Part shown: piece by piece, positions 1,062 through 31,714 of the stretch
Layout: every line of letters begins with the position of its first letter
Position numbering within the stretch: the stretch's first letter is position 1
Source of the DNA: an uncultured Anaerolineales bacterium
GTDB lineage: Bacteria; Chloroflexota; Anaerolineae; B4-G1
Reading direction: 5' to 3'
Assembly (NCBI GenBank): GCA_964649415.1
Contig: CAZYSK010000067.1
Location: 191 to 32,342, forward strand
DNA: 32,152 nt
Made by a program: the position numbers and the translations under genes
Notes under the pieces: generated by a model
What the model was told of the DNA's origin: nothing
The model's database searches: none
The model's input: only the letters and a program-made list of their open reading frames with translations

Positions 1062-1066
1062 GAGAA

Positions 1067-2788: not shown

Positions 2789-2825
2789 CGGCACTCCGGC
2801 GGAGACCTGACGGGGCGAACAAAAA

Positions 2826-2976
2826 GCATGGAGCGCCATCGGAATGGCGCCTTCAAATGGAGCATGGAGCGCCATCGGAATGGCGCCTTCAAATGGAGCA
2901 TGGAGCGCCATCGGAATGGCGCCTTCAAATGGAGTATGGAGCGCCATCGGAATGGCGCCTTCAGATAGAGCATGGA
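2826..2976. repeat. Family-1 hairpin repeat: four tandem copies of a 36-bp unit (ATGGAGCGCCATCGGAATGGCGCCTTCAAATGGAGC) containing the perfect palindrome GCGCCATcggaATGGCGC
   Basis: Four directly abutting units fill the intergenic space between the ThrC-REC gene and the hybrid HK gene. A partial copy is also present at 15..32 of the window. Confidence 0.85.
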
Positions 2977-16554: not shown

Positions 16555-17220
16555 CTACATCAGCATCAGCACGAGGGCCAGTGCCGATACGGCCGGCACG
16601 GTCAAGTTGTCGATGCCCCACGGTGAACATGCCTCGACGAGTACGGCGGCCAGCGCCGTCACGGCCGCGGCTCCCGCAGCAGTGACCGCGCCCAACGATC
16701 CAGGGCCCAGCAGCAGGAGCGGCACGAGCGTCGCGATCCAACTGATGAGGAACAGCACCACAGACCCCTCCAGCGAGCGGGTGCTCCCGGCGACGGTGTA
16801 GCGCCGCTGCCCGATGCGCCGCCCCACCACCGCGGCCAGCGCGTCCCCCCACGTCATGGGCATCAGGCTGGCCACCAGCAGGTCGGGCCTGCCCCACAGC
16901 AGCCAGATCAGGGCCGCGAACGATATCGGGAAATAGACGGTGCCCAACTGGCCCTTCTCCCCGGTCTCCATGGCCTTGAACGTCCCGCGCCAGTAGGACA
17001 AGGCGTTGATAACGACGAAGGCCAGCGGCGGAATGATGGCGAAGGCGCGGCGCTCGAACAGCAGTACCGTCCCGAAGGCCCACATGCCGACGGCGATGTG
17101 GATGAACTTGCGCGTGAAGTCCACGGAATAGCCGCGCCACATGCGCAGCCCCTCGGCGACGCCGATGGCGGCGAAAACGTAGGCGAAGGAGGATAGTAGA
17201 GCGATGGTATCTTGGGGCAT
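16555..17220 (-). CDS. CTP-transferase-1 family membrane protein (CdsA / phytol-kinase / dolichol-kinase-like)
   Basis: It is a polytopic membrane protein. The motifs TRKFIHIAVG, GDALAAVVGRRIG and EGSVVLFLIS match the VTE5/DolK/CdsA family. Its start lies 9 nt after the REC-CHAT stop. Confidence 0.55.
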   Translation of the reverse strand: MPQDTIALLSSFAYVFAAIGVAEGLRMWRGYSVDFTRKFIHIAVGMWAFGTVLLFERRAFAIIPPLAFVVINALSYWRGTFKAMETGEKGQLGTVYFPISFAALIWLLWGRPDLLVASLMPMTWGDALAAVVGRRIGQRRYTVAGSTRSLEGSVVLFLISWIATLVPLLLLGPGSLGAVTAAGAAAVTALAAVLVEACSPWGIDNLTVPAVSALALVLMLM

Positions 17221-17229
17221 CGTTGCACC

Positions 17230-18732
17230 TTACACTTGATGGATGAGGATGGGCGACAGCCACGTGGTATCGTTGCGATCAATGGACAATTCGCACCTTG
17301 CATGCCAAAGCGCAACTTCTGGTCTGCCCTGGTCCAGCAGGGACTTATAGAAGGCCAGGGCCAATCGCCGAGCGCCGTCGTCGGATACAGGCCAGCGATA
17401 GCCCACCACCGAGGGCACACCGGCCTGGGCGACTGCATCGGCCAATCCGAGGAAGTCATCATCGAGCAGAGCAACCTTTCCACCCGACGCTGTGCCGTAG
17501 CAACTGCTCAGATAGACGAGGCGCACCCCCGATTGCCCAAGTAGCAGCCTGACTTCGGTCGCCCGCATAGGCACGATGCCCCCTTGCTTGTCCGCCTCAG
17601 CCCAGAAGTAGAGGCTACTTTCTTCGGGAGAGTCGGCCTCATAGGAACCATGCCCTGCATAATGTACCACGTCGTAGTTCTGTGCCTTCAACTCTGCTCT
17701 GACGCGTTCGTATGTGGCTTGTTCCGTGGCGATGAGCTTCACGTCAACCGGGATACGATCCTGGCCTTTCAAATAACTGGATAGCTCTTGTGCCTCGGCA
17801 TCAGCCCCATCAATCGGAGGCAGAGTCTTCGAAGTCGTGTTCGACGCGATGATCAGCACGCGCAGTTCTTTCGTCAGTGCCAGCACGCGAGGCGAGATCG
17901 CTTCGCGCTTTGGGGTAGCCTCACACACAAACCGGGCAAGCGGATGCTGAAGCACCAGGTATTCCTGAGGGGCATCCGAGTACATGAACTCCATTGGAAG
18001 ACACACATACTCCCTGGGAGTCTCAAATTGCAGCGAGAGCAACTGGCTGCTGGCACGGGCCGTCAGATAGGTCTCTTTGGCCTCGGGTTGCTCACCGAAT
18101 ACGTCACGCCATAGGTCGCGACCGATCTGCTCGACCTGCAAACGCAGGTTGTTCCAGTCTTGCCTGGCAACTTCGGTCCTCCTCGCATATCGCTCGACGT
18201 CTAGCACCAGCGCCCTGCCCGACCGCCGGGAGCAAACGTGATAGCCACGCGATCTTATCGCCAAGTGCTGCCTTGCCACAAGAGACAGGGACAGCCTGGA
18301 TTCATCGCCGAAATTCTTAAGCTGTGGTTCTCTTGGCTCGTCGCATATCCCCGGCCTGTCTCTCGTCTCCGCGATGATCTCCAAGACTTGTTTGACCACA
18401 TCTGGCGTCTTCTCGACGAATTGCTCTACCCCAAGATACCGAATCGCGCGGACGATTTGCTTGGCCCTCACATAGCGCGTTAGCAAGATGACGTGGACCT
18501 TCGGATCCAGAGCGCGGAAAGCCATCGCCAGACTCGAACCACTTTCGTCCTCCTCGCCACCTTCGTGCAGACGTACATCAATGAGCGCAAAATCGAAGGG
18601 CTCCTGTATGACCGCGTCCAGTGCCTGTCCCTCATTGGATGCCACCCGCACGGTATGCCCCTCATCGGAGAGCCGCCCGCGCAATGTATCCCGGAAGTCA
18701 GGCTCATCGTCTACTACCAGTATCTTGTACAT
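17230..18732 (-). CDS. Response regulator with N-terminal REC and C-terminal CHAT (caspase-like) protease domain. The start is MYKIL at 18732 with a GAGGGGG RBS. The ORF extends to 18834.
   Basis: The REC domain reads ILVVDDEPD...LIDVRLHEGGEEDESG...ILLT...K. The CHAT His/Cys dyad context is VVHYAGHG and RLVYLSSCYGT, with the typical ~400-aa CHAT layout. Confidence 0.75.
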   Translation of the reverse strand: MYKILVVDDEPDFRDTLRGRLSDEGHTVRVASNEGQALDAVIQEPFDFALIDVRLHEGGEEDESGSSLAMAFRALDPKVHVILLTRYVRAKQIVRAIRYLGVEQFVEKTPDVVKQVLEIIAETRDRPGICDEPREPQLKNFGDESRLSLSLVARQHLAIRSRGYHVCSRRSGRALVLDVERYARRTEVARQDWNNLRLQVEQIGRDLWRDVFGEQPEAKETYLTARASSQLLSLQFETPREYVCLPMEFMYSDAPQEYLVLQHPLARFVCEATPKREAISPRVLALTKELRVLIIASNTTSKTLPPIDGADAEAQELSSYLKGQDRIPVDVKLIATEQATYERVRAELKAQNYDVVHYAGHGSYEADSPEESSLYFWAEADKQGGIVPMRATEVRLLLGQSGVRLVYLSSCYGTASGGKVALLDDDFLGLADAVAQAGVPSVVGYRWPVSDDGARRLALAFYKSLLDQGRPEVALWHARCELSIDRNDTTWLSPILIHQV

Positions 18733-18797: not shown

Positions 18798-19688
18798 TCA
18801 CTCGACTGCGTCCCACCTCTCCCGTATGTAGCACATGGCCGCCCTAACATCCAGGTTCCGCGTCGAATTGCCCATACGCACCCAGAACTCGTGAGAGTCA
18901 CCCTTGCCCAAGAAAACCGGCCTTGGGCTTTCGTCAATGGAGACGGCGCAGATGCGCTTGCCATCCATCAACTCGAAACGTGGGTGGATATACAGCACGT
19001 ATTCCGCACCCAAATTGACCTGGACAATATCGGTCAGCAACAGTTGGAATCCGTCGATATCTGACTTGCGCAGGGTCTGCAAGTCTCTTTCAATACCCAG
19101 TATCGTGCCATCGTCAGCGACGCCAAGGAGCAGATGCCCGCCCCCGCAATTCAGCATCCCGGCTATCGCCCTGGCAATCTCCTCCTGCAATCTCTTGTTG
19201 ACTCTGTTCTGCCTGTAGTCCCAACGAATACTGGACTTAAACTCCACCCGGTCATTCTCACCCTGGGCGATCAATTCGACGACATCTGGGGCCGCGCATT
19301 CAACCGCGCGCTTCACATATCCCGGCAATTGACTCACTTCGGATTTCTCCAGGAAGCCAAAGGCTGGCGCAACCCCGTCGTGGTCCGGTTGGAGGGCCTC
19401 ACGCACCATCTTGACGTCCGCGTAGCCGGTCAAGATGATGATAGCCACGCTGGGGTCCTTCTCTCTGATCTCGTGCATGAGCACAAGGCCGTCGCGGTTT
19501 TCTTCGTCAGCCTCGTCCAGGCGGACGTCCAGGACTGCGACGTGAAAACGCTCGGCATCCACCATGTGCAGAGCTTCGGCTCTGCTGGACGCCAAGCGTA
19601 CGTCGTAACCATCGTCTGACAGAAGACCCGACAGCGTCACGCGCACGTCGGGCAGATCATCCACGACAAGAACGCGCCCTCTGTGCAC
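18798..19688 (-). CDS. Response regulator with N-terminal REC and C-terminal AlbA_2 (Schlafen-like) domain. The start is GTG.
   Basis: The REC domain reads VLVVDDLPD...VLDVRLDEADEENRDG...IILTGY...EKS. The C-terminal segment ENDRVEFKSS...AIAGMLNCGGGHLLLGVADDGTILGI...FWVRMGNSTRNL matches the AlbA_2 / Schlafen core. It lies 24 nt downstream of the preceding REC gene. Confidence 0.7.
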   Translation of the reverse strand: MHRGRVLVVDDLPDVRVTLSGLLSDDGYDVRLASSRAEALHMVDAERFHVAVLDVRLDEADEENRDGLVLMHEIREKDPSVAIIILTGYADVKMVREALQPDHDGVAPAFGFLEKSEVSQLPGYVKRAVECAAPDVVELIAQGENDRVEFKSSIRWDYRQNRVNKRLQEEIARAIAGMLNCGGGHLLLGVADDGTILGIERDLQTLRKSDIDGFQLLLTDIVQVNLGAEYVLYIHPRFELMDGKRICAVSIDESPRPVFLGKGDSHEFWVRMGNSTRNLDVRAAMCYIRERWDAVE

Positions 19689-19712: not shown

Positions 19713-20114
19713 CTACCGCGCTAGTACTTCCCCCACAACCCGCACCAGATCCTCAGTTTCTGTCTTGGGGATATAGTTGGCCACAAGTCGCTGGCCCTGT
19801 GCATCCGGTTCCATCGCCCGACGCATTATATCAGATGTACCATAGCCCGTGATCATTACGACTCGGATTGCAGGCCAGCGGTGCCTGATCTCGGCTGCCA
19901 GATCCAGTCCCTCAGTGTTACCTTCGTCCGTCTCGTCCAGTCGCACGTCCAGCAGCGCTAGATCAAAATGACCAGTCCCAAGCAATTCCAGCGCCCTCTC
20001 CTGAGACCCGGCGCACTGGACGTCATATCCTGCGTCCTCCAGCAAGCCACTGAGCGTCGCGCGCCAGTCGGGCAGGTCATCCACTACCAAGACTCTGTTA
20101 GGTCCATCTGTCAT
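19713..20114 (-). CDS. Stand-alone CheY-like response regulator (REC only)
   Basis: The domain reads VLVVDDLPD...LLDVRLDETDEGNTEGL...VMITGY...IPKT. It shares the DVRL(D/H)E-acidic insertion with the REC domains of the CHAT and AlbA_2 proteins. It overlaps the upstream gene by 4 nt. Confidence 0.8.
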   Translation of the reverse strand: MTDGPNRVLVVDDLPDWRATLSGLLEDAGYDVQCAGSQERALELLGTGHFDLALLDVRLDETDEGNTEGLDLAAEIRHRWPAIRVVMITGYGTSDIMRRAMEPDAQGQRLVANYIPKTETEDLVRVVGEVLAR

Positions 20115-20503
20115 TGTCCCCCTCCTTCGCGGTTATCATGACGTCGATGCCCTATCGCGGCGGACGAGGGAATAATACCCTCGACGTGCTCAACCAGGTC
20201 CCGGTCACCGAAGGATTTGGCGAAATAGCGCTTGGCCCCCAGCCGGTAAGCCGCCAGGGCCTCCTCAGTCGTGGGCTGGACGGTCGTCACCACGACCCGC
20301 TTATCGGCGTATTTCTCGGCGATGATCTCAAGCACGTCCAGGCGGCGGGAACTCGCGATGACCAGATCGAACTGGTTCGCCTCAAGCTCGGTGATGGCAG
20401 TCTCCTTGTCAGGCGCGACGACTATCTCGAACTGGTTCAAGTCGTTCTTGGCGAACTCTATCCAGCAAGGTTCATCGTCGATGATCAGAATGCGCGTTCT
20501 CAT
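20111..20503 (-). CDS. Atypical (pseudo-)receiver domain protein that apparently lacks the phospho-acceptor Asp
   Basis: The REC fold is recognisable: ILIIDDEP in beta1, VVVTTV carrying the Thr, and YFAKSF carrying the Lys. Beta3 reads FDLVIASS, so the acceptor Asp position holds Ala. It overlaps both the HK stop and the next REC gene by 4 nt. Confidence 0.65.
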   Translation of the reverse strand: MRTRILIIDDEPCWIEFAKNDLNQFEIVVAPDKETAITELEANQFDLVIASSRRLDVLEIIAEKYADKRVVVTTVQPTTEEALAAYRLGAKRYFAKSFGDRDLVEHVEGIIPSSAAIGHRRHDNREGGGQ

Positions 20504-23500
20504 CGCGACACCTCCCCTCCTGCCCCTGGCGCTGGGATATGAACCAGCATGGTCGTTCCCGTGGAGTCGCTGCGCTCTATTTTAACATCACCGCCCAGAC
20601 TTTGCAACATCAGGCTGTTCAACCACAACCCCAGCCCGCTCCCCCCTCTCGGCTCCTTGGAAGGGACGGGCTTGGCGAACAGGCGTTGCTGAACTCTGGA
20701 TGGAATGCCTGGCCCCGTATCCCGAACGCGCACGCAGATGCTGCCGTCCGTCAGACGGCTGGCAACAGTCAACCGACCGCCGTCCTCCATCGCACGATAG
20801 GCATTGTCAGCCAGGTTGCGAAAGACCTCGGAGACCTGCCCAATGGGGGCCTGGATCTGCGGAATGGAGTCGTCCAGGTCCAGAGTAACCGCTATCGCCG
20901 AACGAACCGGGTCGGCTTGCCATCGCTCTCTCGTCCTGCCCACCACGTCATTCAGCACGGCATTGACGTCCACCGCCTGAACCTCGATCTCCCGCAGCGG
21001 CTCCTGGATGCGCGCGATGATCTCCGAGGTATAGCGGGCGTTGCGCTCGATGATGTCGAGGATCTCGGCGATGGTTTCGTCCGCGACGTCCACGCGCTTG
21101 CGCAGGCGCGTCACGTTGGGGACGATGATGTTGAAGGTGTTGTTGATGCGGTGCCGCAGCGCCGCCATTGCGGTGCCCAGCGTCGCCAGTTGCTTGGCGG
21201 CGATGGCCTCGCCGCGCGCTTGCTCATACAGCCGGGCGTTGTCCAGGGCGATGGCAGCCTGGCTGGCCATGGAGAGTAGGACTTGCAGGTCCTGCTCATC
21301 GTAGGCATGTTCTCGCTCCCAATCCTGCATAGCGATCACGCCCAGCGCCCTCTCGCCTATGACCATAGGAACACCTAGCCAAGAACCTGACAAACGTCCA
21401 ATGAACTCTTGGTGTCCGGGTTGCCCATACCACGCCTCGGCCTCCGCCGACGTGCGATGCAAGATGGGTTCCTTGGTGAGGATGATCTCTTCGGTCTTGC
21501 CCCGCCTCTCCATATCCGCCTGGCGGGATTCGTAGTGTACCCGTTCTCCCTGCTCCGTCGCCAGGCCGAAGTGGATCGTGTTCGCTTCCCCATCGTACAA
21601 GGCGATGTACATGTCCTGCGCGCCCGTCAGCCTCTTCGCCTGTTCGTAGATCAGTTCCAGGATCTCGTCTTGCTTCAGGCGAATCCCCGACGTCAATGTT
21701 CTCCCCACCTCGTTGAGCGCCGCCAAGGCCTCCACGCGACGCGCCAGCTTGCGGTTGACGTCGTAGTAGAGCTCTGCGTTGTCCAGCGCGATGGCGGCCT
21801 GGCTGGCCATGGAGGAGAAGACCTGCAAGTCTCGATCATCGTAGGCATGCTCTCGCTCCCAATCCCACAGGGCGAGCACGCCCAGTACTTTCTCACCCAC
21901 CACCATCGGAACACCCAGCCAAGAGAGTGGAACTCGTCCAATGAACTCTTGGTGTCCCGGCTGCCCATACCAGGCTTCGGACTCCGCCAGGGTGCGATGC
22001 AAGATGGGTTCCCTGGTAAAGATGACCTCTTCGGTCTTGCCTCGCGTCTCCATATCCGCCGGGCGGGATTCGTATTGCACCCGTTCGCCATGCTCCGTCG
22101 CCAGGCCGAAGTGGATCTCCCCCTTTTCCTCATCGTATAAGGCGATGTACATATCCTGTGCGCCAGTCAGCCTCTTCGTCTGTTCGTAGATCAACTCCAG
22201 GATCTCGTCCTGCTTCAGGCGAATGCCGGACGTCAGTGTCTGCCCAACCCCATTAAGCACCTGCATAGCATCGCTAAACGCCTGCATAGCCCCATAGGCA
22301 CGTGCGCTCTCAATGGCCACCGCGGCTGCCCCGGCAAGCGCCTCAACCAGGCGCACGTGATCCTCTGCGAATGCTCCAGCCTCCGTGCTCTCCAGGTCCA
22401 GGATCCCAATCACCCGGTCACCATAACGCAAGGGTGCCGCCAGTTCAGACTGCACCTCGGCGTACCATTCCTGGTAATACGGATCGTCCTGGACATCGCG
22501 GCAGACGTAGGTTTCTCCCGTCGCAACCACGTGCGCGCTGATGCTGTTCCCAGAGAGAGGCAGACGGGACGTGCTGCGCGTCGGTTCCTTCTCCACCGCG
22601 TTCATGGCCCCGAAGCGCAGCTCAGTGCCGTGCTCGTCCAGCAACCAGACGCCGGTGTAGGTGGCCGGGGTAAGCCGGGCCGCGTATTCCGCGATGCGCT
22701 TCAGCAAGCTTTCCAGCGGCGCCTTTCCAATGAGGGCGTATATCTCCTGGAGGACTCGAATATCGTCCACACGTTCCTGGAGCCTGGCCCGGGTCTCCTC
22801 GTACAGCTCGGTGGTGCGGAATGCCACGGCCGCTTGCGCCGCCAGGGCCTCTGCCAGGTGCTGGTCGGCCTCGCTGAAGGCGTTCAGCCGGCTGCTTTCG
22901 GCATTGAGCACGCCGACCAGCCTATCGCCCGCCAGCATCGGAACGTCCAACTCCGACCGGGTGGCCTCCACGTGACACTTGTACCGGGGATCCTGCGACA
23001 CATCCGTGACGCGCACCGGCTCGCGCGTCTGGGCTGCGGTGCCGATCAATCCCTCACCCAGATCGATGCTCCTGTCGGGAGACTTGCCCATCGCGTACCT
23101 GAATTCCAGGCTTCCGGTTCCCGGATCGAACACGCTGATGGACCCAAACTCGCAATTCAGGAGTTCTAGGGACCGCTCCAACGTCCGCTGCAGCAATTTG
23201 TCTCTGTCCAGCACGGAGGTGATGTCACGTGCGATATCTTGAAGCGTCTCGCGTTGCTGGAATAGCTGAGCGTTGCGAATGGCGACCGCCGCCTGGTTGG
23301 CGAACAACTGGATCAGTTCCTGCTGTTCCGCCGGGAACCCTTGTGGTGTGCGGTAGTTGACGAACAAGATACCCACCGCCTCGTCGCCGACCAGCAACGG
23401 AATCGCGGCCGTGGAGGCGATCTGCTCCCTGAAGATGAAGCGCCGCTCCGGCATGCCCTCTCGGGCGATTTTGAAGGGGGCCGAAAGAAGCGGTTCATGC

Positions 23501-25281
23501 TGCGCGTCCGCAGCGAAGAGGGGGCGACTCAACGTAAGGACCTGCATCGCCACGTCGTCAGGCAGGATTTTCTTGGACGGCTTGACTTCCACCAGCATTC
23601 TTCCTCCAGAGACGTGATCAGCGACGCGATCCCGTCTGCCTGGACTGTAGCGATACAGCTCAACCAGATCAGCGCCTAACACACCCCTGGCCTGTTGTGC
23701 AATCTGCTGCAGCAGATCCTCAAGACTTTCCCCCGTCACCTCGACGGTGCTCAGACGCTGCCCCACCTTGTTCAGCGCTTCTAGCGCCTGGATCCGCCTC
23801 TGGATCTGCTCATACACGCGGGCGTTGTGGATCGCCATGGCCGCCTGGTTGGCAAGCAGTTCGATGACCCTCCGTTGATCAGGTGGAAACTCCTGGCGGG
23901 TCCGGTAGTTGACGAACATGACACCTACGGTCTCGCCAGCGGCCTTGAGCGGCACGGAAGCCGAAGACAGGACCCCCTCGCGCACGACGAAGCGCCGGTC
24001 CGGGCGCTCAGGACGCTCGACGGTGAACGAGCCGCTGAGCAAGCGATCAGCCTGGGCATCGCGCGTATAAAGCGGCTCGCCGCGCTTGACAACTTCTACC
24101 GCGATGTCGTCCCCGAAGATGTGCTCCTTGACGACATCGGGGACCCGCCGCTCCCCTTCCAGGATCGGCGGGAGGATGTACCGCTCCTCCCTTTCGACGT
24201 ACTGATACACGTCAACCAGGTCGGCACCCAGCACATCCCTGGCGCTCCGCGCCACGTGCTGCAATACCCTTGGCAATCCTCTCGCCGACACCTCGGCCGA
24301 TAGCAGTTCCTCCCCGATCCGATGCAACCTCTCCAGGGCCGCCGACCGGCTGGTCTCCTGCTCGATCAGCCTGGCGTTGCGCAATGCGGCCGCCGCCTGA
24401 CCTGCCAGTGTCTCCAGGAGCACCTGGTCCCGTTCGTCAAAGGCCGCCAGGCCGTCCTTGTCGGCCGAGATCACCCCGACAACCTCGTCGCCCAAGGTCT
24501 TGATGGGCACCACGAGCATTGAGCGTTCAGAGGCCTGTGAAGACCAGCCACGGACAAACCGCGGGTCATGCACCGCGTCCATGACGAGCGCCGGCTCCCC
24601 ATTCTGGGCTACCCAACCGGCCAATCCCTCCCCAATGGCAAAGCTCCTCTGCTCCACGCCCTCCGCGGACCGCGCCGCCATTTTGAGCACATCGGCGCTC
24701 TCATCCATCCGGAATATGCTGACGTGCTGGCAATCCAACACGCGCGCCGCAGACTGTGTGATATGCTCGAGCAGCCTGGGCAGTTTCAGGTCGGAGTTGA
24801 TCCAGAGGCTCACTTCGTTCAGGACCGCCAGATCCCGTATCCATCGCTGCGCGACAGCTACCTGCGCGGCCAGACCCTGGGCCAGAGCCTGCTGAGAATC
24901 GCTGAAGTCTCTAGCCTCGTACGCATAGACGTCCATGACTCCCACGACCGTGTTTTTCACCCGTAACGGCACTACCATGGCCGACTCAAGCCCCACGGCG
25001 GATGCCTCTTCCTTGAACGCCCAGCGGGCGTCCGAGGCGATGTCTTTGACTACAATCGGGCGCCCCGTCTTGAACACCTCCGACCCGACGCTGATTTCGT
25101 CCAAAGGCAGGGCCGCCGTGCGCATATAGTCACCCGGCAGGCCCTCGGATGCAACAAGGCGCAGAGCTTGCTTGACCTCATCGAGGAGCCAGATGCCGAC
25201 CGGCAACTCCAGGATCGAGCCGATTGTACCTACCAACGGTTGAAGAAACCGCTTTTCGCCAGGCCCTGTAGAGGCAGACAT
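20500..25281 (-). CDS. Soluble multi-GAF sensor histidine kinase (about 8-9 GAF domains, HisKA and HATPase_c), 1593 aa
   Basis: It has no TM helices. GAF-like units with inter-domain ALxNARLYEQ linkers recur along the protein. The C-terminal H-box is AALRHRINNTFNII. HATPase_c reads RNLADNAYRAMEDGGRLTV...VRDTGPGIP...GGSGLGLWL. A strong GGGGGGAG RBS precedes the ATG. Confidence 0.85.
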   Translation of the reverse strand: MSASTGPGEKRFLQPLVGTIGSILELPVGIWLLDEVKQALRLVASEGLPGDYMRTAALPLDEISVGSEVFKTGRPIVVKDIASDARWAFKEEASAVGLESAMVVPLRVKNTVVGVMDVYAYEARDFSDSQQALAQGLAAQVAVAQRWIRDLAVLNEVSLWINSDLKLPRLLEHITQSAARVLDCQHVSIFRMDESADVLKMAARSAEGVEQRSFAIGEGLAGWVAQNGEPALVMDAVHDPRFVRGWSSQASERSMLVVPIKTLGDEVVGVISADKDGLAAFDERDQVLLETLAGQAAAALRNARLIEQETSRSAALERLHRIGEELLSAEVSARGLPRVLQHVARSARDVLGADLVDVYQYVEREERYILPPILEGERRVPDVVKEHIFGDDIAVEVVKRGEPLYTRDAQADRLLSGSFTVERPERPDRRFVVREGVLSSASVPLKAAGETVGVMFVNYRTRQEFPPDQRRVIELLANQAAMAIHNARVYEQIQRRIQALEALNKVGQRLSTVEVTGESLEDLLQQIAQQARGVLGADLVELYRYSPGRRDRVADHVSGGRMLVEVKPSKKILPDDVAMQVLTLSRPLFAADAQHEPLLSAPFKIAREGMPERRFIFREQIASTAAIPLLVGDEAVGILFVNYRTPQGFPAEQQELIQLFANQAAVAIRNAQLFQQRETLQDIARDITSVLDRDKLLQRTLERSLELLNCEFGSISVFDPGTGSLEFRYAMGKSPDRSIDLGEGLIGTAAQTREPVRVTDVSQDPRYKCHVEATRSELDVPMLAGDRLVGVLNAESSRLNAFSEADQHLAEALAAQAAVAFRTTELYEETRARLQERVDDIRVLQEIYALIGKAPLESLLKRIAEYAARLTPATYTGVWLLDEHGTELRFGAMNAVEKEPTRSTSRLPLSGNSISAHVVATGETYVCRDVQDDPYYQEWYAEVQSELAAPLRYGDRVIGILDLESTEAGAFAEDHVRLVEALAGAAAVAIESARAYGAMQAFSDAMQVLNGVGQTLTSGIRLKQDEILELIYEQTKRLTGAQDMYIALYDEEKGEIHFGLATEHGERVQYESRPADMETRGKTEEVIFTREPILHRTLAESEAWYGQPGHQEFIGRVPLSWLGVPMVVGEKVLGVLALWDWEREHAYDDRDLQVFSSMASQAAIALDNAELYYDVNRKLARRVEALAALNEVGRTLTSGIRLKQDEILELIYEQAKRLTGAQDMYIALYDGEANTIHFGLATEQGERVHYESRQADMERRGKTEEIILTKEPILHRTSAEAEAWYGQPGHQEFIGRLSGSWLGVPMVIGERALGVIAMQDWEREHAYDEQDLQVLLSMASQAAIALDNARLYEQARGEAIAAKQLATLGTAMAALRHRINNTFNIIVPNVTRLRKRVDVADETIAEILDIIERNARYTSEIIARIQEPLREIEVQAVDVNAVLNDVVGRTRERWQADPVRSAIAVTLDLDDSIPQIQAPIGQVSEVFRNLADNAYRAMEDGGRLTVASRLTDGSICVRVRDTGPGIPSRVQQRLFAKPVPSKEPRGGSGLGLWLNSLMLQSLGGDVKIERSDSTGTTMLVHIPAPGAGGEVSR
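21236..22315. repeat. Intragenic tandem duplication: two ~540-bp (180-codon) GAF-domain units with high nucleotide identity inside the multi-GAF HK gene
   Basis: Unit 1 starts with GCGTTGTCCAGGGCGATGGC at 21236 and unit 2 with GCGTTGTCCAGCGCGATGGC at 21776, a period of 540. The encoded peptides LTSGIRLKQDEILELIYEQ(T/A)KRLTGAQDMYIALYD...GQPGHQEFIGR... are near-identical. Confidence 0.85.
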
Positions 25282-25486: not shown

Positions 25487-26827
25487 TCAATTGCGCCGCG
25501 CTTGCCTCCAGGCATCCAATTCAGCCTGGTATTCCGCTTCTGCAAACGCCAACCCCTTTTCCCGTAGCATCATAGCTGTGAGAACGTGAGGCAGGCCCTT
25601 TCGCTTCTCCAGGAACAGGATTTGAGAACCAGTGAGCGTATGCCCACCATTATCACTCAGGAATCGGTCAAGTTGGCGTCGCCCGCGCACCACGGTTCTC
25701 ATGAAACGCTGGGACTCACCCAAGAAATAGGTCATCAAGCGCTTCTCGTCCTCCGGCGTCGCCCGCAGGGAGCGATGAACCGTCCGGGAAATACAGCCCA
25801 TCACTCCCGGCAGGAATTCCCCGGACTCGATGCCGAGGACAATTTGCCGCGTCACGATGCCCCGTATCAGTAGCTTGACGATTCTCTCCCGGCCGTTCTT
25901 GCCCGGGGGAGGAGCCCCGTCCGCGACCAGGGTATACAGTGCCTTGGAATAGTCCGCAATCACGTGCTCGCTGGCACGGACCAGTGATTCCGGCATGTGA
26001 GAGGCACGCACGAAACCATGGATCGTGTCCACAAGGGGCCGGTAGGCATCCGTCTCAAACACCGACGCAGCGCCCTGCGAAATCATGGCCACGCGCTCGG
26101 TGCCGATGACCGTCTCAGCGAAGGGCTCCGCCATCTGACGCAGAGACCTGCTCTGGGGATCGAGTTCGCGGGAGATGAAGAGGGAATTGGAGAACTCGAC
26201 AAAGCGTCCGCACTTGCAGCCCGGCCTGCAAGCCGGCCCGCAGGCCTTTTCGGCACCCAGGTCATAGAACAACTCCGTGTTCGGCCCTGCCTTGCGGGGG
26301 GTCTCCATACCGTCAATCCCGCCGCCTTGCACCCAGTAGTTGTCATCCGGTCCCAGGCCAATGACGTGATCCCCGGGCACCCCTACCTCGATCCAGGCTC
26401 GACGTGTGACCCCGTCCCCCGGCAGATGCTCGCCCAAGACCGCCCCGCCCTCAAAATAGGAGACCCAGATGCGGCTCTGATCTATGCCGAGAACAGACGT
26501 GGCCAGTGTCCACATACGCCGAATGGTTTCGGCTTTCCCGTTTGGACCAAAGACAAATGCACCGGGCATTTCGAACAAGCTCAGGTGCGTGCCGTCAGTT
26601 CCGACCTTGTCGAGATCGAAGTGGCGAAAACACTCCTGAACGAGGACGAATTGGTCGCCGGGTCTTTCGTCCACCCGGGCCAGGGAGGTCTCTATCTGAA
26701 CTAGGCCGGCACTCATCACGTAAGACATGGGAATAGATGGGTGAAGCATAGGGGCGCGGGGCAGCGGGTGAAAGCCAAGTCCTTCGTAGTAACCTACAAA
26801 GCGCCGACGGATTGCAGAAGCGTTCAT
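25487..26827 (-). CDS. Truncated, divergent alanyl-tRNA-synthetase-like protein (class II catalytic core plus tRNA-recognition domain only; no editing or C-Ala domains), 446 aa from the ATG at 26827
   Basis: Alignment to AlaRS is recognisable. N-terminal IRRRFVGYYEGLGFHPLP corresponds to IRQ.FLDFF..KGH. QECFRHFDLDKVG..THLSLFEMPGAFVFG corresponds to QRCVRAGGKHNDLENVG..HHTFFEMLGNFSFG. AGPNTELFYDLG corresponds to CGPCTEIFYD. RFVEFSNSLFI corresponds to RYIEIWNLVFMQF. LTGSQILFLEKRKGLPHVLT corresponds to the tRNA-recognition DAFKLYDTYGFPLELT. The AGGKHND ATP-binding segment is shortened. The upstream in-frame ATG at 26881 lies upstream of the predicted promoter. Confidence 0.65.
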   Translation of the reverse strand: MNASAIRRRFVGYYEGLGFHPLPRAPMLHPSIPMSYVMSAGLVQIETSLARVDERPGDQFVLVQECFRHFDLDKVGTDGTHLSLFEMPGAFVFGPNGKAETIRRMWTLATSVLGIDQSRIWVSYFEGGAVLGEHLPGDGVTRRAWIEVGVPGDHVIGLGPDDNYWVQGGGIDGMETPRKAGPNTELFYDLGAEKACGPACRPGCKCGRFVEFSNSLFISRELDPQSRSLRQMAEPFAETVIGTERVAMISQGAASVFETDAYRPLVDTIHGFVRASHMPESLVRASEHVIADYSKALYTLVADGAPPPGKNGRERIVKLLIRGIVTRQIVLGIESGEFLPGVMGCISRTVHRSLRATPEDEKRLMTYFLGESQRFMRTVVRGRRQLDRFLSDNGGHTLTGSQILFLEKRKGLPHVLTAMMLREKGLAFAEAEYQAELDAWRQARRN

Positions 26828-26861
26828 ACTGACCCCTCTCACAGCTACACGCGGAACAGAG

Positions 26862-26900
26862 GCTACAATATTGTACCACACTTATCGGGGTTATGCAACA
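26862..26900 (-). promoter_or_regulatory. Predicted sigma70-like promoter of the AlaRS-like gene: -35 TTGCAT, 17-bp spacer, extended -10 TGgTACAAT
   Basis: On the minus strand the sequence reads TTGCATAACCCCGATAAGTGTGGTACAAT. A ~35-nt 5'UTR with a GAGAGGGG RBS precedes the ATG at 26827. A second copy with TTGCAC / TATAAT is conserved at 32060..32088. Confidence 0.55.
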
Positions 26901-26996: not shown

Positions 26997-28037
26997 CTAT
27001 GCCGGCTTCAGAAGTGCGCTCACGATACCGATATCCTGCCACGTGACCGTTTCCTCCTCAGGCACGCCACCGATCACAATTGGGGCAACGGGGGGAAACT
27101 GGATCTTTCCCGTCCCCGGATCACGGACAAACCTGCCATACTCCCACTCTTTCTGATCGACGTTCCATACCACCGCGTGCCCCGTCGCCGGTGGGACAGC
27201 ACCTCGCGCCCAGGCCGCCAGGACGTAGTCCCCCTCGTTGCTGTGTGGTCCAGCCCACCGATCTCGTGGGACGCGGACTGCAAAGCTGCGAGCATCCCAC
27301 GGGAGCCACAGGTTGGTGCCAAACGGCATGCCGTCTTCCGGGTGATACAAACGGTATCTCCGCTCATCGATATCGATCTCCGAGGGGATCAAGCAGCCTC
27401 TCGGCTCCGCACGCAGGAGCCCATAGCCGTTCCCTGTGACCACGGGGATATGCACGGCTGCTGCGCCATCGACCAGCGAAAGGTCATCCGCCAGACACCG
27501 GCACAGGGCGTTGATCCAACTGAGTGCGTGCTGGCACTTGTCTATCTGCTGACTGCATTCTTGTGTTCGCGATGGGTCTCTGAAGCGATTATCCTCCCAA
27601 TACTTGATCGCTTCGCCAAAGGCCTTGATCGCACGCTGGTAATCGACCAGCGCCTTGGTCCTGGATCCTAGCGCACAGTGGAGCAAGCCCCGCAGGTACA
27701 CGACGACAGCTTCGATATGGCGCTTGTTCTGGTAGCCAGGCAGTAAGCCAAGCGCTTTGGCAGCCTCTTGACAACAGTCCAGCGCCGGTCCCCATCGATC
27801 AGTCTCTCGATACAGGTCACCCATCCAGATACAAAGGACGCTCTCACTTGCAGAATGATGACAGGCTCGCGCGAACGCGTGGGCCTCTTCAATGCATCGA
27901 ATAGCCCTATTCACGTCGCCCAGGCACCAGTACTCTGAGCATTTCATCGTGGCAGCGGAGACTACAGATGGCAGCCCATTCTCGCACACCAGTGCTCTAG
28001 GCGCCAGGTCTGGGGGCAATCCCGTGATCACAGGCAT
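26997..28037 (-). CDS. Hypothetical protein with an N-terminal Cys-rich TPR-like helical domain and a C-terminal LexA/S24-peptidase-like beta domain that lacks the catalytic Ser and Lys
   Basis: The N-terminal ~190 aa are helical with TPR-like A/L/Y periodicity. The C-terminal HIPVVTGNGYGLL...FAVRVPRDRWAG..GDYVLAAW...GHAVVWNVDQKEWEYGRF...VTWQDIGIVSALL aligns to LexA segments LPLVGRVAAGEPLL, LLRVSGMSMKDIGIMDGDLLAV, GQVVVARIDDEVTVKRL and GLAVGV, with Ser replaced by Arg and Lys by Gly. A GGAG RBS is 8 nt upstream. Confidence 0.45.
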   Translation of the reverse strand: MPVITGLPPDLAPRALVCENGLPSVVSAATMKCSEYWCLGDVNRAIRCIEEAHAFARACHHSASESVLCIWMGDLYRETDRWGPALDCCQEAAKALGLLPGYQNKRHIEAVVVYLRGLLHCALGSRTKALVDYQRAIKAFGEAIKYWEDNRFRDPSRTQECSQQIDKCQHALSWINALCRCLADDLSLVDGAAAVHIPVVTGNGYGLLRAEPRGCLIPSEIDIDERRYRLYHPEDGMPFGTNLWLPWDARSFAVRVPRDRWAGPHSNEGDYVLAAWARGAVPPATGHAVVWNVDQKEWEYGRFVRDPGTGKIQFPPVAPIVIGGVPEEETVTWQDIGIVSALLKPA

Positions 28038-28265
28038 GGTTACACTCCAGTGGCTCTATGCCGGTCTGCCAGAACACCACCAATCACCGAATAGTCCTTG
28101 ATCTCGCAAGCTCTTTCAGACTACACTGCAGAAGCATCTGCATACCGCAGCATGGCCGCGTAGCGGAGTAACTCAGATGCGCCGGTTGAGGCAGCAAGTT
28201 GATCGTGTCGCCTCCAGCGATCCAGGATCTCGGAGAGCGCCATCATCCTGCGCTGGTGGCAACTC

Positions 28266-29714
28266 TCATGCCCCTCGTATCTCTGGCAGCAGACGTCCAA
28301 GCTCGGAGCCAGCATCATCCGTGCCCGGTAGCCCATCGCCAACCAAACTATGCGTATTCGCCAGCAGTTGCTCCAATTGGCTCAGCATCCGCAGCGTCTC
28401 GGGCGGCAAGAACATACGCTTATGCGGATCGTAGGCCATCCAGCGCAAGGTCTCAGTGAAACGCATGGCCATCAGGTAGGGATGTAGTTCTTCTTCACTG
28501 CTGACAAGTGGCCGGATCGTCTCAATAAGCGTCAGCACCATCTCTGCTTGTGCCTGCACCCGCGCAGCATCCAGACGCGCTATCTCCGCCTCCCCCTCTG
28601 CCTGGTCCTCTACTGCCCTCCGTCTCCAATCGGCCTGCCAGGCTTCGACCCACTGGGCATAGATTTTCTCATCCTTTACGTCAATCTCACCCAGATCAAC
28701 GTTGAGGATCCGGGCCCCCTTGTCATTGCCCACCGAGAGTTTCTCGCGCAAGCGCTTTTCAAGACGTTCCCGGATCTCCTCACGGGGATTCCCCCGGCCT
28801 GGCCAGGGCGGCTGCATCAGCCAATCGAGACGGTAGTCAGCCAAGACCATCCGCAGGATCCCCTCAACCTCGCCAATCATCACGCGCCCCGTCCATTTCC
28901 TGGTCTGTTCCGGGTGATCCGGCTCGTGGATACGGACCCATGTGCTTGTGGCTGCGTTGAAGACCGCCTCATCCGTGTGCGCCAGCGACCTCGCCGGCAC
29001 CTCGCCCTGTTGGCCAGCGTCCCGGTCGTCAATCTTGAAAGTGATGTCAGCCTGGCAGGAAACAGGGATTCCCTCCTTCGTCATCGCCGTAACCGCAAGT
29101 GGCCAGTGCTGTTGTCGCAGGTCAATGACCTCCCAGACCCGCTCGTAGCGCTCAAGGAAGCAAAAAGCGGGGCCCAAGACCCGGCTCAGTCTTCCACCTC
29201 TCTCCAGAACCGCCGCGCTGTCACCGTGAACCACCACAAACCCTGGACCGCCGATGCGGTCACAAGTCGTGCCCGCCCCAAGCGTGATATGCCCTTCTTC
29301 CACGATCAGCAGCGGCTTGAGCGCATCCCCTGGCATGCCGAACATGCTCCGATGAGCGACACCTTGGGCCTCCTCCAGATCCTCCGTGTCGTAGAGGTCG
29401 CGGACAAAACGCGAGGCCAGGCGTGAGATAGCTATCAAAGCTATCAGCAATGGAACGGAACTGAAGAAGCTCCTGACAAGAAAGATGAAGCCGTAGCGGA
29501 TGCAGTCCTTCACCAGTCTCAGAAGACTCCCCACGTAGGACAGATCAAACGGGGCATGGAGAAACTCGATGGCGCATCCAATGAACACCACTAATAGGAT
29601 TGGCCCATGTACCGCAAACATGCGCCAGCGATGCTGACGCTTCAACCTCAGGCGCGTCGACCGCCCGCGTCCGGACAGGGCCCACCTAAGCAGATCTTCA
29701 GGCAGTGAGATCAT
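28266..29714 (-). CDS. SPFH/band-7 (stomatin/flotillin-like) domain membrane protein, 482 aa, with an N-terminal TM region
   Basis: The N-terminal hydrophobic helices are ILLVVFIGCAIEF and VPLLIALIAI. The SPFH core reads LLIVEEGHITLGAG...GPGFVVVHGDSAAV...EVIDLRQQ...VTAMTKEGIPVSCQADITFKID. A coiled-coil Ala/Glu-rich tail follows (AEGEAEIARLDAARVQAQAEM). Its ATG overlaps the upstream gene's TGA (ATGA). Confidence 0.7.
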   Translation of the reverse strand: MISLPEDLLRWALSGRGRSTRLRLKRQHRWRMFAVHGPILLVVFIGCAIEFLHAPFDLSYVGSLLRLVKDCIRYGFIFLVRSFFSSVPLLIALIAISRLASRFVRDLYDTEDLEEAQGVAHRSMFGMPGDALKPLLIVEEGHITLGAGTTCDRIGGPGFVVVHGDSAAVLERGGRLSRVLGPAFCFLERYERVWEVIDLRQQHWPLAVTAMTKEGIPVSCQADITFKIDDRDAGQQGEVPARSLAHTDEAVFNAATSTWVRIHEPDHPEQTRKWTGRVMIGEVEGILRMVLADYRLDWLMQPPWPGRGNPREEIRERLEKRLREKLSVGNDKGARILNVDLGEIDVKDEKIYAQWVEAWQADWRRRAVEDQAEGEAEIARLDAARVQAQAEMVLTLIETIRPLVSSEEELHPYLMAMRFTETLRWMAYDPHKRMFLPPETLRMLSQLEQLLANTHSLVGDGLPGTDDAGSELGRLLPEIRGA

Positions 29715-31714
29715 CTCCCCCCTACCCTCCTTTGCAGCCGCCGCATGATGCTGTCCACGTCGCCTGGAAGGAAATCGCGCAGCGCCGATCGTTGAAGCAG
29801 GCTCTCCAGCGCCTCAACGAAGTATTGTAGGATAGCATCCGTATGGACAGGGGGGGCCTCGTCCCGTATCCGCTCAATGCGTTTAGCGATATCCAGTATG
29901 ATTTCCACCTGGGCCTGTGCCCGCGCTTGTTCTACCCGACTTATTCGCACAGACTGTCCTTCTGCCCTCTGTATCGCGATTCTGCGTGCCCAATTGGCCC
30001 GCCAGGCCTCGATGCGTTTCTCGATCACGTCGTCGTCCATCGGCACCAGGTCGCTGATCCCCCCGCCCACGCGCTTGATGCCGAACTTGGGCAGTTCGGT
30101 GTCCAGTCTTTGCCGCAGTTCATCGGCGATCCGAGCACGCGGGTGTTTCCTCAAGTCTTCATATAGCTCAAAGGGCGCGTAGAGTTCGTCGAACTCGTAG
30201 TGAGAGATGATGTCGCGCACGATAGGCTCACCAACCAACTGGGGCAAGTCGTACCACTCGCACTTCGTGTTGTCTTCAGGGGTCTGGGCCAGGCACACCT
30301 GCATTGTTTCCGCAGTCACCGCCTTGTAGACATCGCTAGCACGATAGGGAAAGCCCTCGCCAAGCTGAGGCCTAGCATCGCCCGTGCTCATCTGGAATGG
30401 GACGAAAGTGACAACCCGGATGCCGATGCCGTCCTTGGTCCACGCATCAACGTGAAAGGCGCGTAACTGAACTCGCAGATCGATCACGTGCGTGGGCGTC
30501 TCGTACGCGTTCGTGAAGACAAGACCAGGCCCTCTGGCCCCTCTGATATCGGTGCTGGTGCATACGACGACGAGGTGATCGCAGCCGGTGAGGACGATAC
30601 CCGGCCCGGCCAGGAACTCCGCAAAGACGTCTCCCTCCAACCGCTGTATCAGCCGCTCCCTCGCTTCCAACCACGTTCGTGTTCCTTCAGTGCGTTCGGT
30701 GATTCGTTCGTCTACGACAACGTGGTATGGGTAGTTTGTGCCCAACGCATACGTCACAAGGCAACGGAGAGCTGTGCGATGCTGTTCGTACCACTCTCTT
30801 CGCGCTTCCCTGTTCCGTGAGCGGCGCAACAGATCAACGAAGTCAAAAATCTCATCGCAAAAGGTAGGGATGGTGCCCGCATCCCGTGGGCTACGGCTAC
30901 CTCGATACAGATCAAGCGGCGGTAAAGGCAGGAGTGAGGCAGACCTGAAGAAGAGCGTCCCCACAGGCATGAGAAGCGCTGGCAGCGTGATAAACAGCAG
31001 CCCAGACCAACCACACCGCCAGCCAATACAGACCGTGTCCCAGTAGTAGACCCACACGGCAGAAAGCATCCACCGACGGAATCTGTCATGGTTGGGTTCC
31101 AGACGGAGAGAAGGGCGAACCTGCTCAGGCGAGAAGACTACAGCGAGCAAGAAGAGGATCAATGAGCCTTCGCCGTCGAGCGCCAATGCCAGCACCAGGG
31201 CGACGAAGGCACCAAACGATGCCGGAATGAGCAAACGTCTTTCTCGCCACTTCCACGTAACCGTCTCTTTCCATCGCCATACAAGTCCCTGGGAGACCTC
31301 TACCTTGTCCCTTCTCGCGCTTTGCCTTACACAGGAAAGCCAGAAGCGGATAGGAAACAGGAGATAGGCAAGAACCAAAGCCAGCACGAGAAGGAACGCC
31401 AGGAATGCCAAGATCGCCAGTTGCGCATCGAAAGGCAGGCCGGAGGTACTCAAGAAGAGGTCGTGCAACCTTCCATGGAACCTGAAGAGGATACCAGATG
31501 CCAGCAGGAAGTACAAGAGTATGCACTTCAGGCCTGTTCGTATCCACTGAGCAGTCTGGGCTGATGCGCTTTTCCCCGAGAACCCGGCCAGCCGGAGAAA
31601 CGCACAAAGTGCCATAGCGCCCGCGCCGGCAAATGCAGCAGGCACCAACAGCAGAGCGAAGTTGCCCCAAGCATCCAGAAGGGTCTCGTCCAGAACCGCC
31701 ACGATCTCAGCCAC
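29711..31714 (-). CDS. SPFH/band-7 domain membrane protein, 667 aa, with a large polytopic N-terminal membrane region; a paralog of the downstream gene (GTG start)
   Basis: The N-terminal ~250 aa contain multiple hydrophobic helices. The SPFH core reads GPGIVLTGCDHLVVVCTSTD...VIDLRVQLRAFHVDAWTKDGIGIRVVTFVPFQ. The coiled-coil tail IEAWRANWARRIAIQRAEGQSVRISRVEQARAQAQVEIIL parallels the paralog's AQWVEAWQADWRRRAVEDQAEGEAEIARLDAARVQAQAEMVL. A GAGGTG RBS is present. Confidence 0.7.
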   Translation of the reverse strand: MAEIVAVLDETLLDAWGNFALLLVPAAFAGAGAMALCAFLRLAGFSGKSASAQTAQWIRTGLKCILLYFLLASGILFRFHGRLHDLFLSTSGLPFDAQLAILAFLAFLLVLALVLAYLLFPIRFWLSCVRQSARRDKVEVSQGLVWRWKETVTWKWRERRLLIPASFGAFVALVLALALDGEGSLILFLLAVVFSPEQVRPSLRLEPNHDRFRRWMLSAVWVYYWDTVCIGWRCGWSGLLFITLPALLMPVGTLFFRSASLLPLPPLDLYRGSRSPRDAGTIPTFCDEIFDFVDLLRRSRNREARREWYEQHRTALRCLVTYALGTNYPYHVVVDERITERTEGTRTWLEARERLIQRLEGDVFAEFLAGPGIVLTGCDHLVVVCTSTDIRGARGPGLVFTNAYETPTHVIDLRVQLRAFHVDAWTKDGIGIRVVTFVPFQMSTGDARPQLGEGFPYRASDVYKAVTAETMQVCLAQTPEDNTKCEWYDLPQLVGEPIVRDIISHYEFDELYAPFELYEDLRKHPRARIADELRQRLDTELPKFGIKRVGGGISDLVPMDDDVIEKRIEAWRANWARRIAIQRAEGQSVRISRVEQARAQAQVEIILDIAKRIERIRDEAPPVHTDAILQYFVEALESLLQRSALRDFLPGDVDSIMRRLQRRVGGR

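Follow-up and report, generated by a model that had tools for sequence, protein, structure and literature searches.

Prokaryotic Schlafens (pSlfn) have been shown to act as tRNA-cutting immune effectors only in 2025-2026 (PMC13056530; PMC13462974). The Ex4(E/D)xK motif forms the active site of the bacterial Schlafen tRNases RorSlfn5 and CbCash, and its mutation abolishes both tRNA cleavage and toxicity (PMC13056530; PMC13462974). The bacterial single-lobe Schlafens are oligomeric, forming a hexamer or a dimer or filament; the activators reported to date comprise a phage protein and cyclic tetra-adenylate (cA4) or are unknown, and their described sensors comprise a protein-binding Ig-like domain, DUF262, a cA4-binding Csx15 domain, an ATPase and NACHT (PMC13056530; PMC13462974). 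Detocs represents the use of two-component systems for defence with exchangeable effectors; it consists of the kinase DtcA, the buffer receiver DtcB and the receiver-effector DtcC, the effector being a PNP ATP nucleosidase in 80% of the systems (bioRxiv 10.1101/2023.01.24.525353). Detocs needs both the His of the kinase and the Asp of the receiver for defence, and loss of the Asp of the buffer receiver is toxic (bioRxiv 10.1101/2023.01.24.525353), which indicates that phosphorylation activates in this system. Here we describe a locus that joins elements of both, located in a stretch of 32,152 nucleotides (nt) of an uncultured Anaerolineales bacterium of the Chloroflexota (assembly GCA_964649415.1, contig CAZYSK010000067.1, positions 191 to 32,342 of the forward strand), hereafter called the window. 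Its central gene encodes a response regulator receiver (REC) domain fused to a Schlafen-like AlbA_2 domain (REC-AlbA_2). We consider it reasonably probable that this protein is a phosphorylation-gated, single-lobe Schlafen metal-dependent endoribonuclease that forms one arm of a branched two-component cassette; judged from its homology, the enzyme is probably a tRNase. The gene and its functional elements are:

18798..19688, minus strand: REC-AlbA_2 gene, 296 aa, GTG start (open reading frame (ORF) list, Pfam)
19296..19679, minus strand: receiver domain, aa 4-131 (alignment to CheY and Spo0F)
19527..19529, minus strand: phospho-acceptor D54 of the receiver (alignment to CheY and Spo0F)
18801..19283, minus strand: AlbA_2/Schlafen-like domain, aa 136-296 (Pfam, PDB profile matches, structural model, Foldseek)
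19236..19259, minus strand: catalytic motif ENDRVEFK, i.e., Ex4ExK, with E144, E149 and K151 (SLFN14 alignment, conservation)
19113..19115, minus strand: third acidic residue, D192 (SLFN14 alignment, conservation)

A first-pass annotation of the window had read this frame as a receiver fused to AlbA_2, on the basis of the peptides VEFKSS and GMLNCGGGHLLLGVADDGTILGI (residues 148-199), and had made the AlbA_2 identity dependent on a significant profile match. Both domains indeed score above their Pfam cutoffs: Response_reg at residues 6-105 (E 2.8e-18, 66.5 bits, cutoff 30.2) and SLFN_AlbA_2 (PF04326) at residues 144-279 (E 5.6e-16, 59.6 bits, gathering score 25.3), the latter over 117 of the 118 profile positions. 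Pfam gives only these two domains, and no helix-turn-helix (HTH) or winged-helix output domain was found with it. In NCBIfam the best 25 of 58 matches cover only the receiver part, far below the cutoffs; with PADLOC and NCBIfam together only receiver-domain matches were obtained and none for the AlbA_2 part. A search of 5.8 billion proteins yielded 345 relatives, and the best 120 of these are all ca. 300 aa long, contain both REC and AlbA_2, and are 55-100% identical to the query; in all, this architecture is seen in more than 120 homologue clusters. The fusion is, therefore, a real and conserved family and not an artefact of assembly or chance. Organism names were attached to five of these relatives, i.e., four times “response regulator [Chloroflexota]” and one metagenome-assembled genome (MAG) labelled Proteobacteria.

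A fold search with the AlphaFold2 model of the full-length protein returned almost exclusively receiver structures and the C-terminal domain was then predicted alone. This model is of high quality (predicted local distance difference test score (pLDDT) 93.6, predicted template modelling score (pTM) 0.90), and its top 31 Foldseek matches in the PDB are all of the AlbA_2 type, comprising 3lmm, SAMD9 (7ksp, 9o0d), SLFN5/11/12/13/14 and 2kyy, with an identity to the eukaryotic Schlafens and SAMD9 of just 12-20%. A profile built from 21 C-terminal domains matches the C-lobes of SLFN14, SLFN12, SLFN13/8, SLFN11 and SLFN5 (E 7e-7 to 9e-3) and, weakly, also the N-lobe of the same structures. In the alignment with SLFN14, “GEnerVEFK” of the query lies opposite “TESTHVEFK” and “liGVaDdg” opposite “LIGVDD”. 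E144, E149, K151 and D192 thus align to the active site of the Schlafen C-lobe, and they are invariant both in the 21 homologues of the profile and in a set of 38; the retention of nuclease-like acidic residues, raised as a point to check when the gene was first annotated, is thereby established.

The receiver is likewise intact. Compared with CheY and Spo0F it possesses the acidic pair D10/D11, the acceptor D54, T87 and K115, and the D, T and K phospho-acceptor residues are conserved in all 33 receivers that occupy this (third-receiver) operon position. Directly after the acceptor Asp an acidic insertion is present (DVRLDEADEEN; 19500..19530, minus strand), which in the form D-[VIM]-R-L-D-E-[TAS]-[DN]-E-x-N is common to all three phospho-accepting receivers of the cassette. 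This insertion is specific enough to serve as a search pattern for genome scans; the peptide patterns used in such scans fell inside the receiver and retrieved mostly paralogous or sister loci with REC-TCAD9 (see below).

The REC-AlbA_2 gene is the fourth of five genes on the minus strand, in the order kinase, REC1, REC2, REC-AlbA_2 and REC-CHAT. The other four genes are:

20500..25281, minus strand: cytoplasmic histidine kinase, 1593 aa, eight GAF domains and HATPase_c (Pfam)
21151..21153, minus strand: kinase H1377 in the H-box “HRINNT”, followed by the N, G1 and G2 boxes
20111..20503, minus strand: REC1, pseudo-receiver, 130 aa (Pfam REC, E 1.1e-10)
19713..20114, minus strand: REC2, stand-alone receiver, 133 aa, of the same REC subfamily and with an intact acceptor Asp (Pfam)
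17230..18732, minus strand: REC-CHAT, 500 aa, receiver and caspase-like CHAT protease (Pfam CHAT, E 8.6e-35, and REC)

REC1 overlaps each of its neighbours by 4 nt, the stop codon of REC2 is separated by 24 nt from the start of REC-AlbA_2, and the stop codon of REC-AlbA_2 by 66 nt from the ATG of REC-CHAT. The placement of REC-AlbA_2 directly upstream of REC-CHAT in one operon, as first annotated, is thus borne out by the shared strand and the 66-nt gap. The ATG at 18732 (MYKILVVDD, with GAGGGGG before it) is the most likely start of REC-CHAT and agrees with the 500-aa JGI gene call; a GTG at 18834, which would give a 37-nt overlap with the AlbA_2 gene, was considered and dropped in its favour. 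A scan for promoters and terminators was uninformative on transcription units, as such sites were no commoner than in shuffled sequence.

No Pfam model of the dimerization and histidine phosphotransfer (DHp) domain matches the kinase. The H-box with H1377 and the N, G1 and G2 boxes are, however, conserved in 25 kinase orthologues and the protein is, therefore, an intact histidine kinase. In REC2 the D, D, D and T residues are conserved in 22 of 22 orthologues, and by analogy with DtcB it is probably a candidate phosphate buffer or shuttle. In REC1 the acceptor Asp is replaced (“DLVIASSRR”) and is a residue other than Asp in 21 of 21 orthologues, while Thr, Lys and the first Asp are kept in all 21 and the second Asp in 14. 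The receiver of REC-CHAT keeps its acceptor Asp, and in its protease domain the His of “hY.GHG” and the Cys of “C.G” (C445, in 534-aa numbering) are conserved in 21 orthologues. The proposal in the first-pass annotation that phosphorylation gates nucleic-acid binding or cleavage thus receives indirect support from the conserved D10, D11, D54, T87 and K115 and from an H-box kinase in the same operon.

We compared 12 distinct REC-AlbA_2 loci (the window, which is L037, and L001, L003, L005, L007-L010 and L038-L041), including a sister clade with less than 50% identity. All 12 contain a multi-GAF kinase, REC1, REC2, REC-AlbA_2 and then a further receiver-effector. This last gene is REC-CHAT in nine loci (in L001 with an EAD7 adaptor) and a receiver with a TIR domain, either N- or C-terminal, in the remaining three. 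A further 19 Chloroflexota loci, sisters of these, share the kinase/REC1/REC2 core, but the receiver after it is fused to TCAD9, an APH-like kinase domain, in place of AlbA_2 and is followed by REC-CHAT, EAD7-REC or nothing. The REC-TCAD9 receiver is 53-68% identical to that of REC-AlbA_2, which is closer than its identity to REC2, and AlbA_2 and TCAD9 occur together in none of the loci examined. Since the orthologous receiver carries TCAD9 in these 19 loci, the AlbA_2 slot accepts different enzymatic effectors while the signalling chassis stays constant. It is the whole cassette of a kinase and four receivers with swappable effectors, rather than a single gene, that is of interest. The MAGs with REC-TCAD9 are labelled Anaerolineae (including Caldilineaceae), Thermoflexales (class Thermoflexia) and Candidatus Aquidulcis (class Candidatus Limnocylindria). 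In three loci (L007, 12851..15152; L009, 12006..14279; L016, 1516..3784) an extra kinase core of ca. 260 aa (HATPase_c) was observed, followed by a second REC-CHAT.

The wider clade of this AlbA_2 domain was explored by searching 1.84 billion representative proteins exhaustively with a profile, which gave 1,684 representatives at E <= 1e-30. In the best 150 of these AlbA_2 is almost always C-terminal, in proteins of 150-1,176 aa, and the N-terminal partners found in 137 of them are very diverse and mostly unannotated, with SBP_bac_3 (12), bPH_2 (5), REC (4) and TIR_2 (2) as well as STAND NTPases, AbiTii, Lon and a BrxL-like ATPase. Of the contexts that were initially considered normal for AlbA_2, the kinship with Schlafens holds, but helicases and winged HTH domains are not its main partners in this subtype, which is a C-terminal module on many N-terminal sensor domains. 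A different, CheY/RpfG-like receiver is joined to the same AlbA_2 subtype in one protein (P0182), and this independent fusion implies that the joining of receiver and AlbA_2 arose at least twice. The nearest relative of the AlbA_2 domain without a REC domain (P0121) adjoins a DUF1156/methyltransferase gene and an EAD11 gene. Plasmids carry relatives at 35-44% identity, the AlbA_2 domains themselves being 38-44% identical, and among these are DUF262-AlbA_2 proteins; phage defence has been shown for EcoSlfn7, a DUF262-Slfn protein (PMC13056530).

These data suggest the following working model. The cytoplasmic kinase would sense an intracellular cue through its eight GAF domains and autophosphorylate on H1377, from which the phosphoryl group would be passed to the Asp of three receivers, i.e., REC2, REC-AlbA_2 (D54) and REC-CHAT. 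Phosphorylation of D54 would alter the alpha4-beta5-alpha5 face of the receiver; in the full-length model a short helical linker of ca. 13 residues runs from receiver alpha5 to the strand bearing E144, E149 and K151. Receivers commonly dimerise and gain activity on phosphorylation. The formation of a dimer or oligomer would most likely follow and bring two AlbA_2 lobes together as an active RNA clamp of the Schlafen type, and this clamp would cut tRNA or another structured RNA and so shut down translation. The CHAT protease (or, in other genomes, the TIR enzyme) would be switched on in parallel. Protection against accidental firing would probably come both from REC2, in the role of a phosphate sink, and from the Asp-less REC1, in that of a modulator. 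As a result, a cell within a filament may stop growing or die on infection or severe stress. That phosphorylation would turn the enzyme on is suggested by analogy with Detocs.

The cassette resembles Detocs in that a sensor kinase and a stand-alone receiver are combined in one operon with a receiver in which a cell-damaging enzyme replaces the DNA-binding domain, and in that the effector domain is exchangeable between genomes. It differs in several respects. The kinase has eight GAF domains and no TPRs, whereas TPRs are the sensor of the Detocs kinase; each operon has at least two receiver-effectors (Schlafen or TCAD9, plus CHAT, TIR or EAD7), none of which is a PNP ATP nucleosidase; an Asp-less pseudo-receiver is added; and the cassette is confined to the Chloroflexota and apparently vertically inherited. 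No match to a Dtc-named model was obtained in PADLOC-DB 2.0.0, although it is not certain whether this release contains Detocs models.

With the pSlfn proteins (RorSlfn5, EcoSlfn7 and Cash) REC-AlbA_2 shares the AlbA_2 fold, the Ex4(E/D)xK motif, the single lobe and the attachment of a further domain with a regulatory or sensor function. In its case, however, this partner is a receiver that would accept a phosphoryl group from a histidine kinase, the Schlafen domain forms the C-terminus and not the N-terminus as in RorSlfn5 and CbCash, and the gene lies outside any defence island. The terms “receiver” and “response regulator” are absent from the main texts of both pSlfn studies (PMC13056530; PMC13462974), the supplementary lists of 55 pSlfn architectures being outside this scope, and a full-text literature search for “Schlafen” with “receiver domain” returned only unrelated work. 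The nuclease domain of the eukaryotic Schlafens and SAMD9 (SLFN11/12/13/14 and the SAMD9 tRNase domain) is homologous and shares the catalytic residues, but the Schlafens possess two fused AlbA_2-like lobes with linker and helicase domains, and their regulation proceeds without His-Asp phosphotransfer to a fused receiver.

The presence of CHAT, TIR, EAD7 and the TCAD9/APH-like kinase in related loci is shared with the conflict systems of multicellular bacteria, for which Chloroflexota have been noted (PMC7159879; PMC8195603). Those EAD/CHAT/TIR systems have MoxR-vWA, GTPase or STAND cores, and the receivers found in them are independent of histidine kinases (Kaur et al.; PMC7159879; PMC8195603). 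In contrast, a histidine kinase is the invariant core of the cassette, and neither the cassette nor its flanking genes in the window include a MoxR-vWA-VMAP, STAND or GAP1 GTPase gene. No kinase-centred, multi-effector cassette composed of these elements was retrieved by full-text literature searches. The cassette is, nevertheless, not categorically new, as it recombines known kinds, i.e., prokaryotic Schlafen effectors and Detocs-like systems.

The CHAT, TIR, EAD7 and TCAD9 partners, the swapping of effectors, the AlbA_2 relatives in defence contexts and the parallel with Detocs all point to a role in conflict or cell death. A more specific proposal, which we put forward only tentatively, is that the cassette represents an undescribed, chromosomally fixed immune or cell-death circuit of the Chloroflexota, several lineages of which are filamentous. 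A multi-GAF kinase would here fire at least two death effectors (a Schlafen tRNase or APH-like kinase together with CHAT or TIR), with the pseudo- and buffer receivers as safety catches; a paralogue of alanyl-tRNA synthetase (AlaRS), whose gene directly precedes that of the kinase, would act as a sensor or antidote linked to tRNA:

25487..26881, minus strand: AlaRS catalytic-domain paralogue, 464 aa (Pfam tRNA-synt_2c; alaS 195.9 bits versus a cutoff of 457)

If true, this would be the first Schlafen nuclease under bacterial phosphorelay control. The AlaRS paralogue directly precedes the kinase in 10 of the 12 REC-AlbA_2 loci and in many REC-TCAD9 loci. The “AGGK” of motif 2 is deleted, D235 is changed to E and G237 to V (E. 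coli numbering), and it is, therefore, unlikely to be the normal AlaRS of the organism; it also carries a conserved four-Cys insert, “C..CrPgC.CG”. It is uncertain whether it belongs to the cassette, but a tRNA-related gene beside a putative tRNase system is suggestive.

Several observations weigh against the picture of a phosphorylation-activated immune nuclease. The direction of gating cannot be read from the sequence, and the low pTM of the full-length model (0.65, at a pLDDT of 91) leaves the relative placement of the two domains undefined. The acidic residues of the active site are also carried by 3lmm and other AlbA_2 proteins of unassigned activity. In P0212, a sister REC-AlbA_2, the catalytic residues have been lost (E..AFL for E..EFK and GVGKNG for GVADDG), so that non-catalytic roles exist in the lineage. 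The remaining points concern the genomic setting. PADLOC identified no defence gene among the 15 ORFs scanned over ca. 27 kb of the window, its output for the 15 proteins comprising only receiver-domain similarity to SduA, PD-T4-6 and PDC-M60, and the window is not a defence island, while 69.6% of pSlfn genes are located beside known defence genes (PMC13056530). The neighbours of the cassette are UvrC, UvrD, GNAT, transporters and other signalling or housekeeping genes. Furthermore, the cassette looks confined to the Chloroflexota and vertically inherited at an ordinary evolutionary rate, with identities across loci of 52-66% for the AlbA_2 domain, 58-76% for the kinase core and 44-71% for the AlaRS paralogue, which is unlike typical mobile defence systems.

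Because of this absence of defence genes, the housekeeping neighbours, the restriction to one phylum and the identities that track those of neighbouring genes, we retain a physiological role as a serious rival. The same device could be a housekeeping regulator of stress or development in filamentous Chloroflexota, in which a metabolic cue read by the GAF domains would lead to limited, reversible tRNA cleavage and proteolysis, and thus to dormancy or remodelling. This is possible, in our opinion, without being the expected outcome. The occurrence of the cassette in many Chloroflexota lineages and its conserved adjacency to the AlaRS paralogue fit such a role, as does the observation that 30% of the Schlafen genes of prokaryotes are not located in defence neighbourhoods and possibly have a non-immune function (PMC13056530). 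On the other hand, CHAT, TIR, EAD7 and TCAD9 are partners typical of conflict systems (PMC7159879), effectors are swapped at two positions on an unchanged signalling core, as in Detocs and other defence systems, and the nearest non-REC relative of the AlbA_2 domain resides beside methyltransferase/DUF1156 and EAD11 genes.

An inverse, guard-type gating is rather unlikely. Here the kinase would be constitutively active in healthy cells and phosphorylation would hold the nuclease and protease off, to be released when infection or damage abolishes kinase activity or depletes ATP. The pseudo-receiver and the extra receiver fit either logic, as does the sequence itself, which does not reveal the direction of control. 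However, Detocs, the sole tested analogue, needs both the kinase His and the receiver Asp and is activated by phosphorylation, and receiver phosphorylation usually promotes dimerisation and activity. It is very unlikely that AlbA_2 is a nucleic-acid-binding output and the protein an unusual response regulator of the transcription-factor type that acts on target genes once phosphorylated, even though the domain has long been annotated as DNA-binding, a crystal structure of the SAMD9 domain contains DNA (7ksp), “DNA/RNA binding protein” is the title of SLFN5 entries, one homologue is labelled “predicted HTH transcriptional regulator” by one source, most response regulators bind DNA and the catalytically degenerate P0212 persists, since there is no HTH or other DNA-binding Pfam domain, the invariant Ex4ExK and D192 would be unexpected for a pure binder, a kinase-like enzyme domain fills the same operon position in the sister loci, this AlbA_2 subtype sits on very diverse sensor-like N-termini, as for an effector module, and for the SAMD9 domain, formerly regarded as DNA-binding, there is now a PDB entry (9o0d) under the title “tRNase domain”.

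If REC-AlbA_2 is indeed a phosphorylation-gated Schlafen nuclease, it would add His-Asp phosphotransfer to the triggers of bacterial Schlafens, and switching in vitro by acetyl phosphate or BeF3- would make it a convenient model for the activation of a single-lobe Schlafen. The operon widens the idea of Detocs, in which a kinase serves one effector, to a single kinase serving several unrelated and exchangeable effectors, and it connects the CHAT/TIR/EAD toolkit, whose predicted role is the programmed cell death of multicellular bacteria, with two-component signalling. The housekeeping neighbours and the apparent vertical inheritance imply that such effectors may also serve non-immune physiological roles, and a role of this kind bears on the approximately 30% of prokaryotic Schlafens outside defence islands.

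The remainder of the window contains further genes. A second signalling cluster (114..4447, plus strand) encodes a double-receiver protein of 315 aa, a PALP-receiver protein of 573 aa and a REC-HisKA-HATPase kinase of 491 aa. PALP is a pyridoxal phosphate (PLP)-dependent enzyme, and in L039, too, a PALP-REC gene closely precedes the cassette. Upstream of the AlaRS paralogue (26997..31714, minus strand) a TPR protein and two tandem SPFH/Band_7 proteins of 482 and 667 aa are encoded; a Band_7 gene occurs near the cassette in L039 too. On the other side, the gene of a multi-pass membrane protein of 221 aa (16555..17220, minus strand) begins 10 nt beyond the stop codon of REC-CHAT; neither Pfam nor NCBIfam gives a match to this protein. 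It is kept downstream of CHAT (82-83% identity) in L008 and L013 only and is probably an unrelated neighbour.

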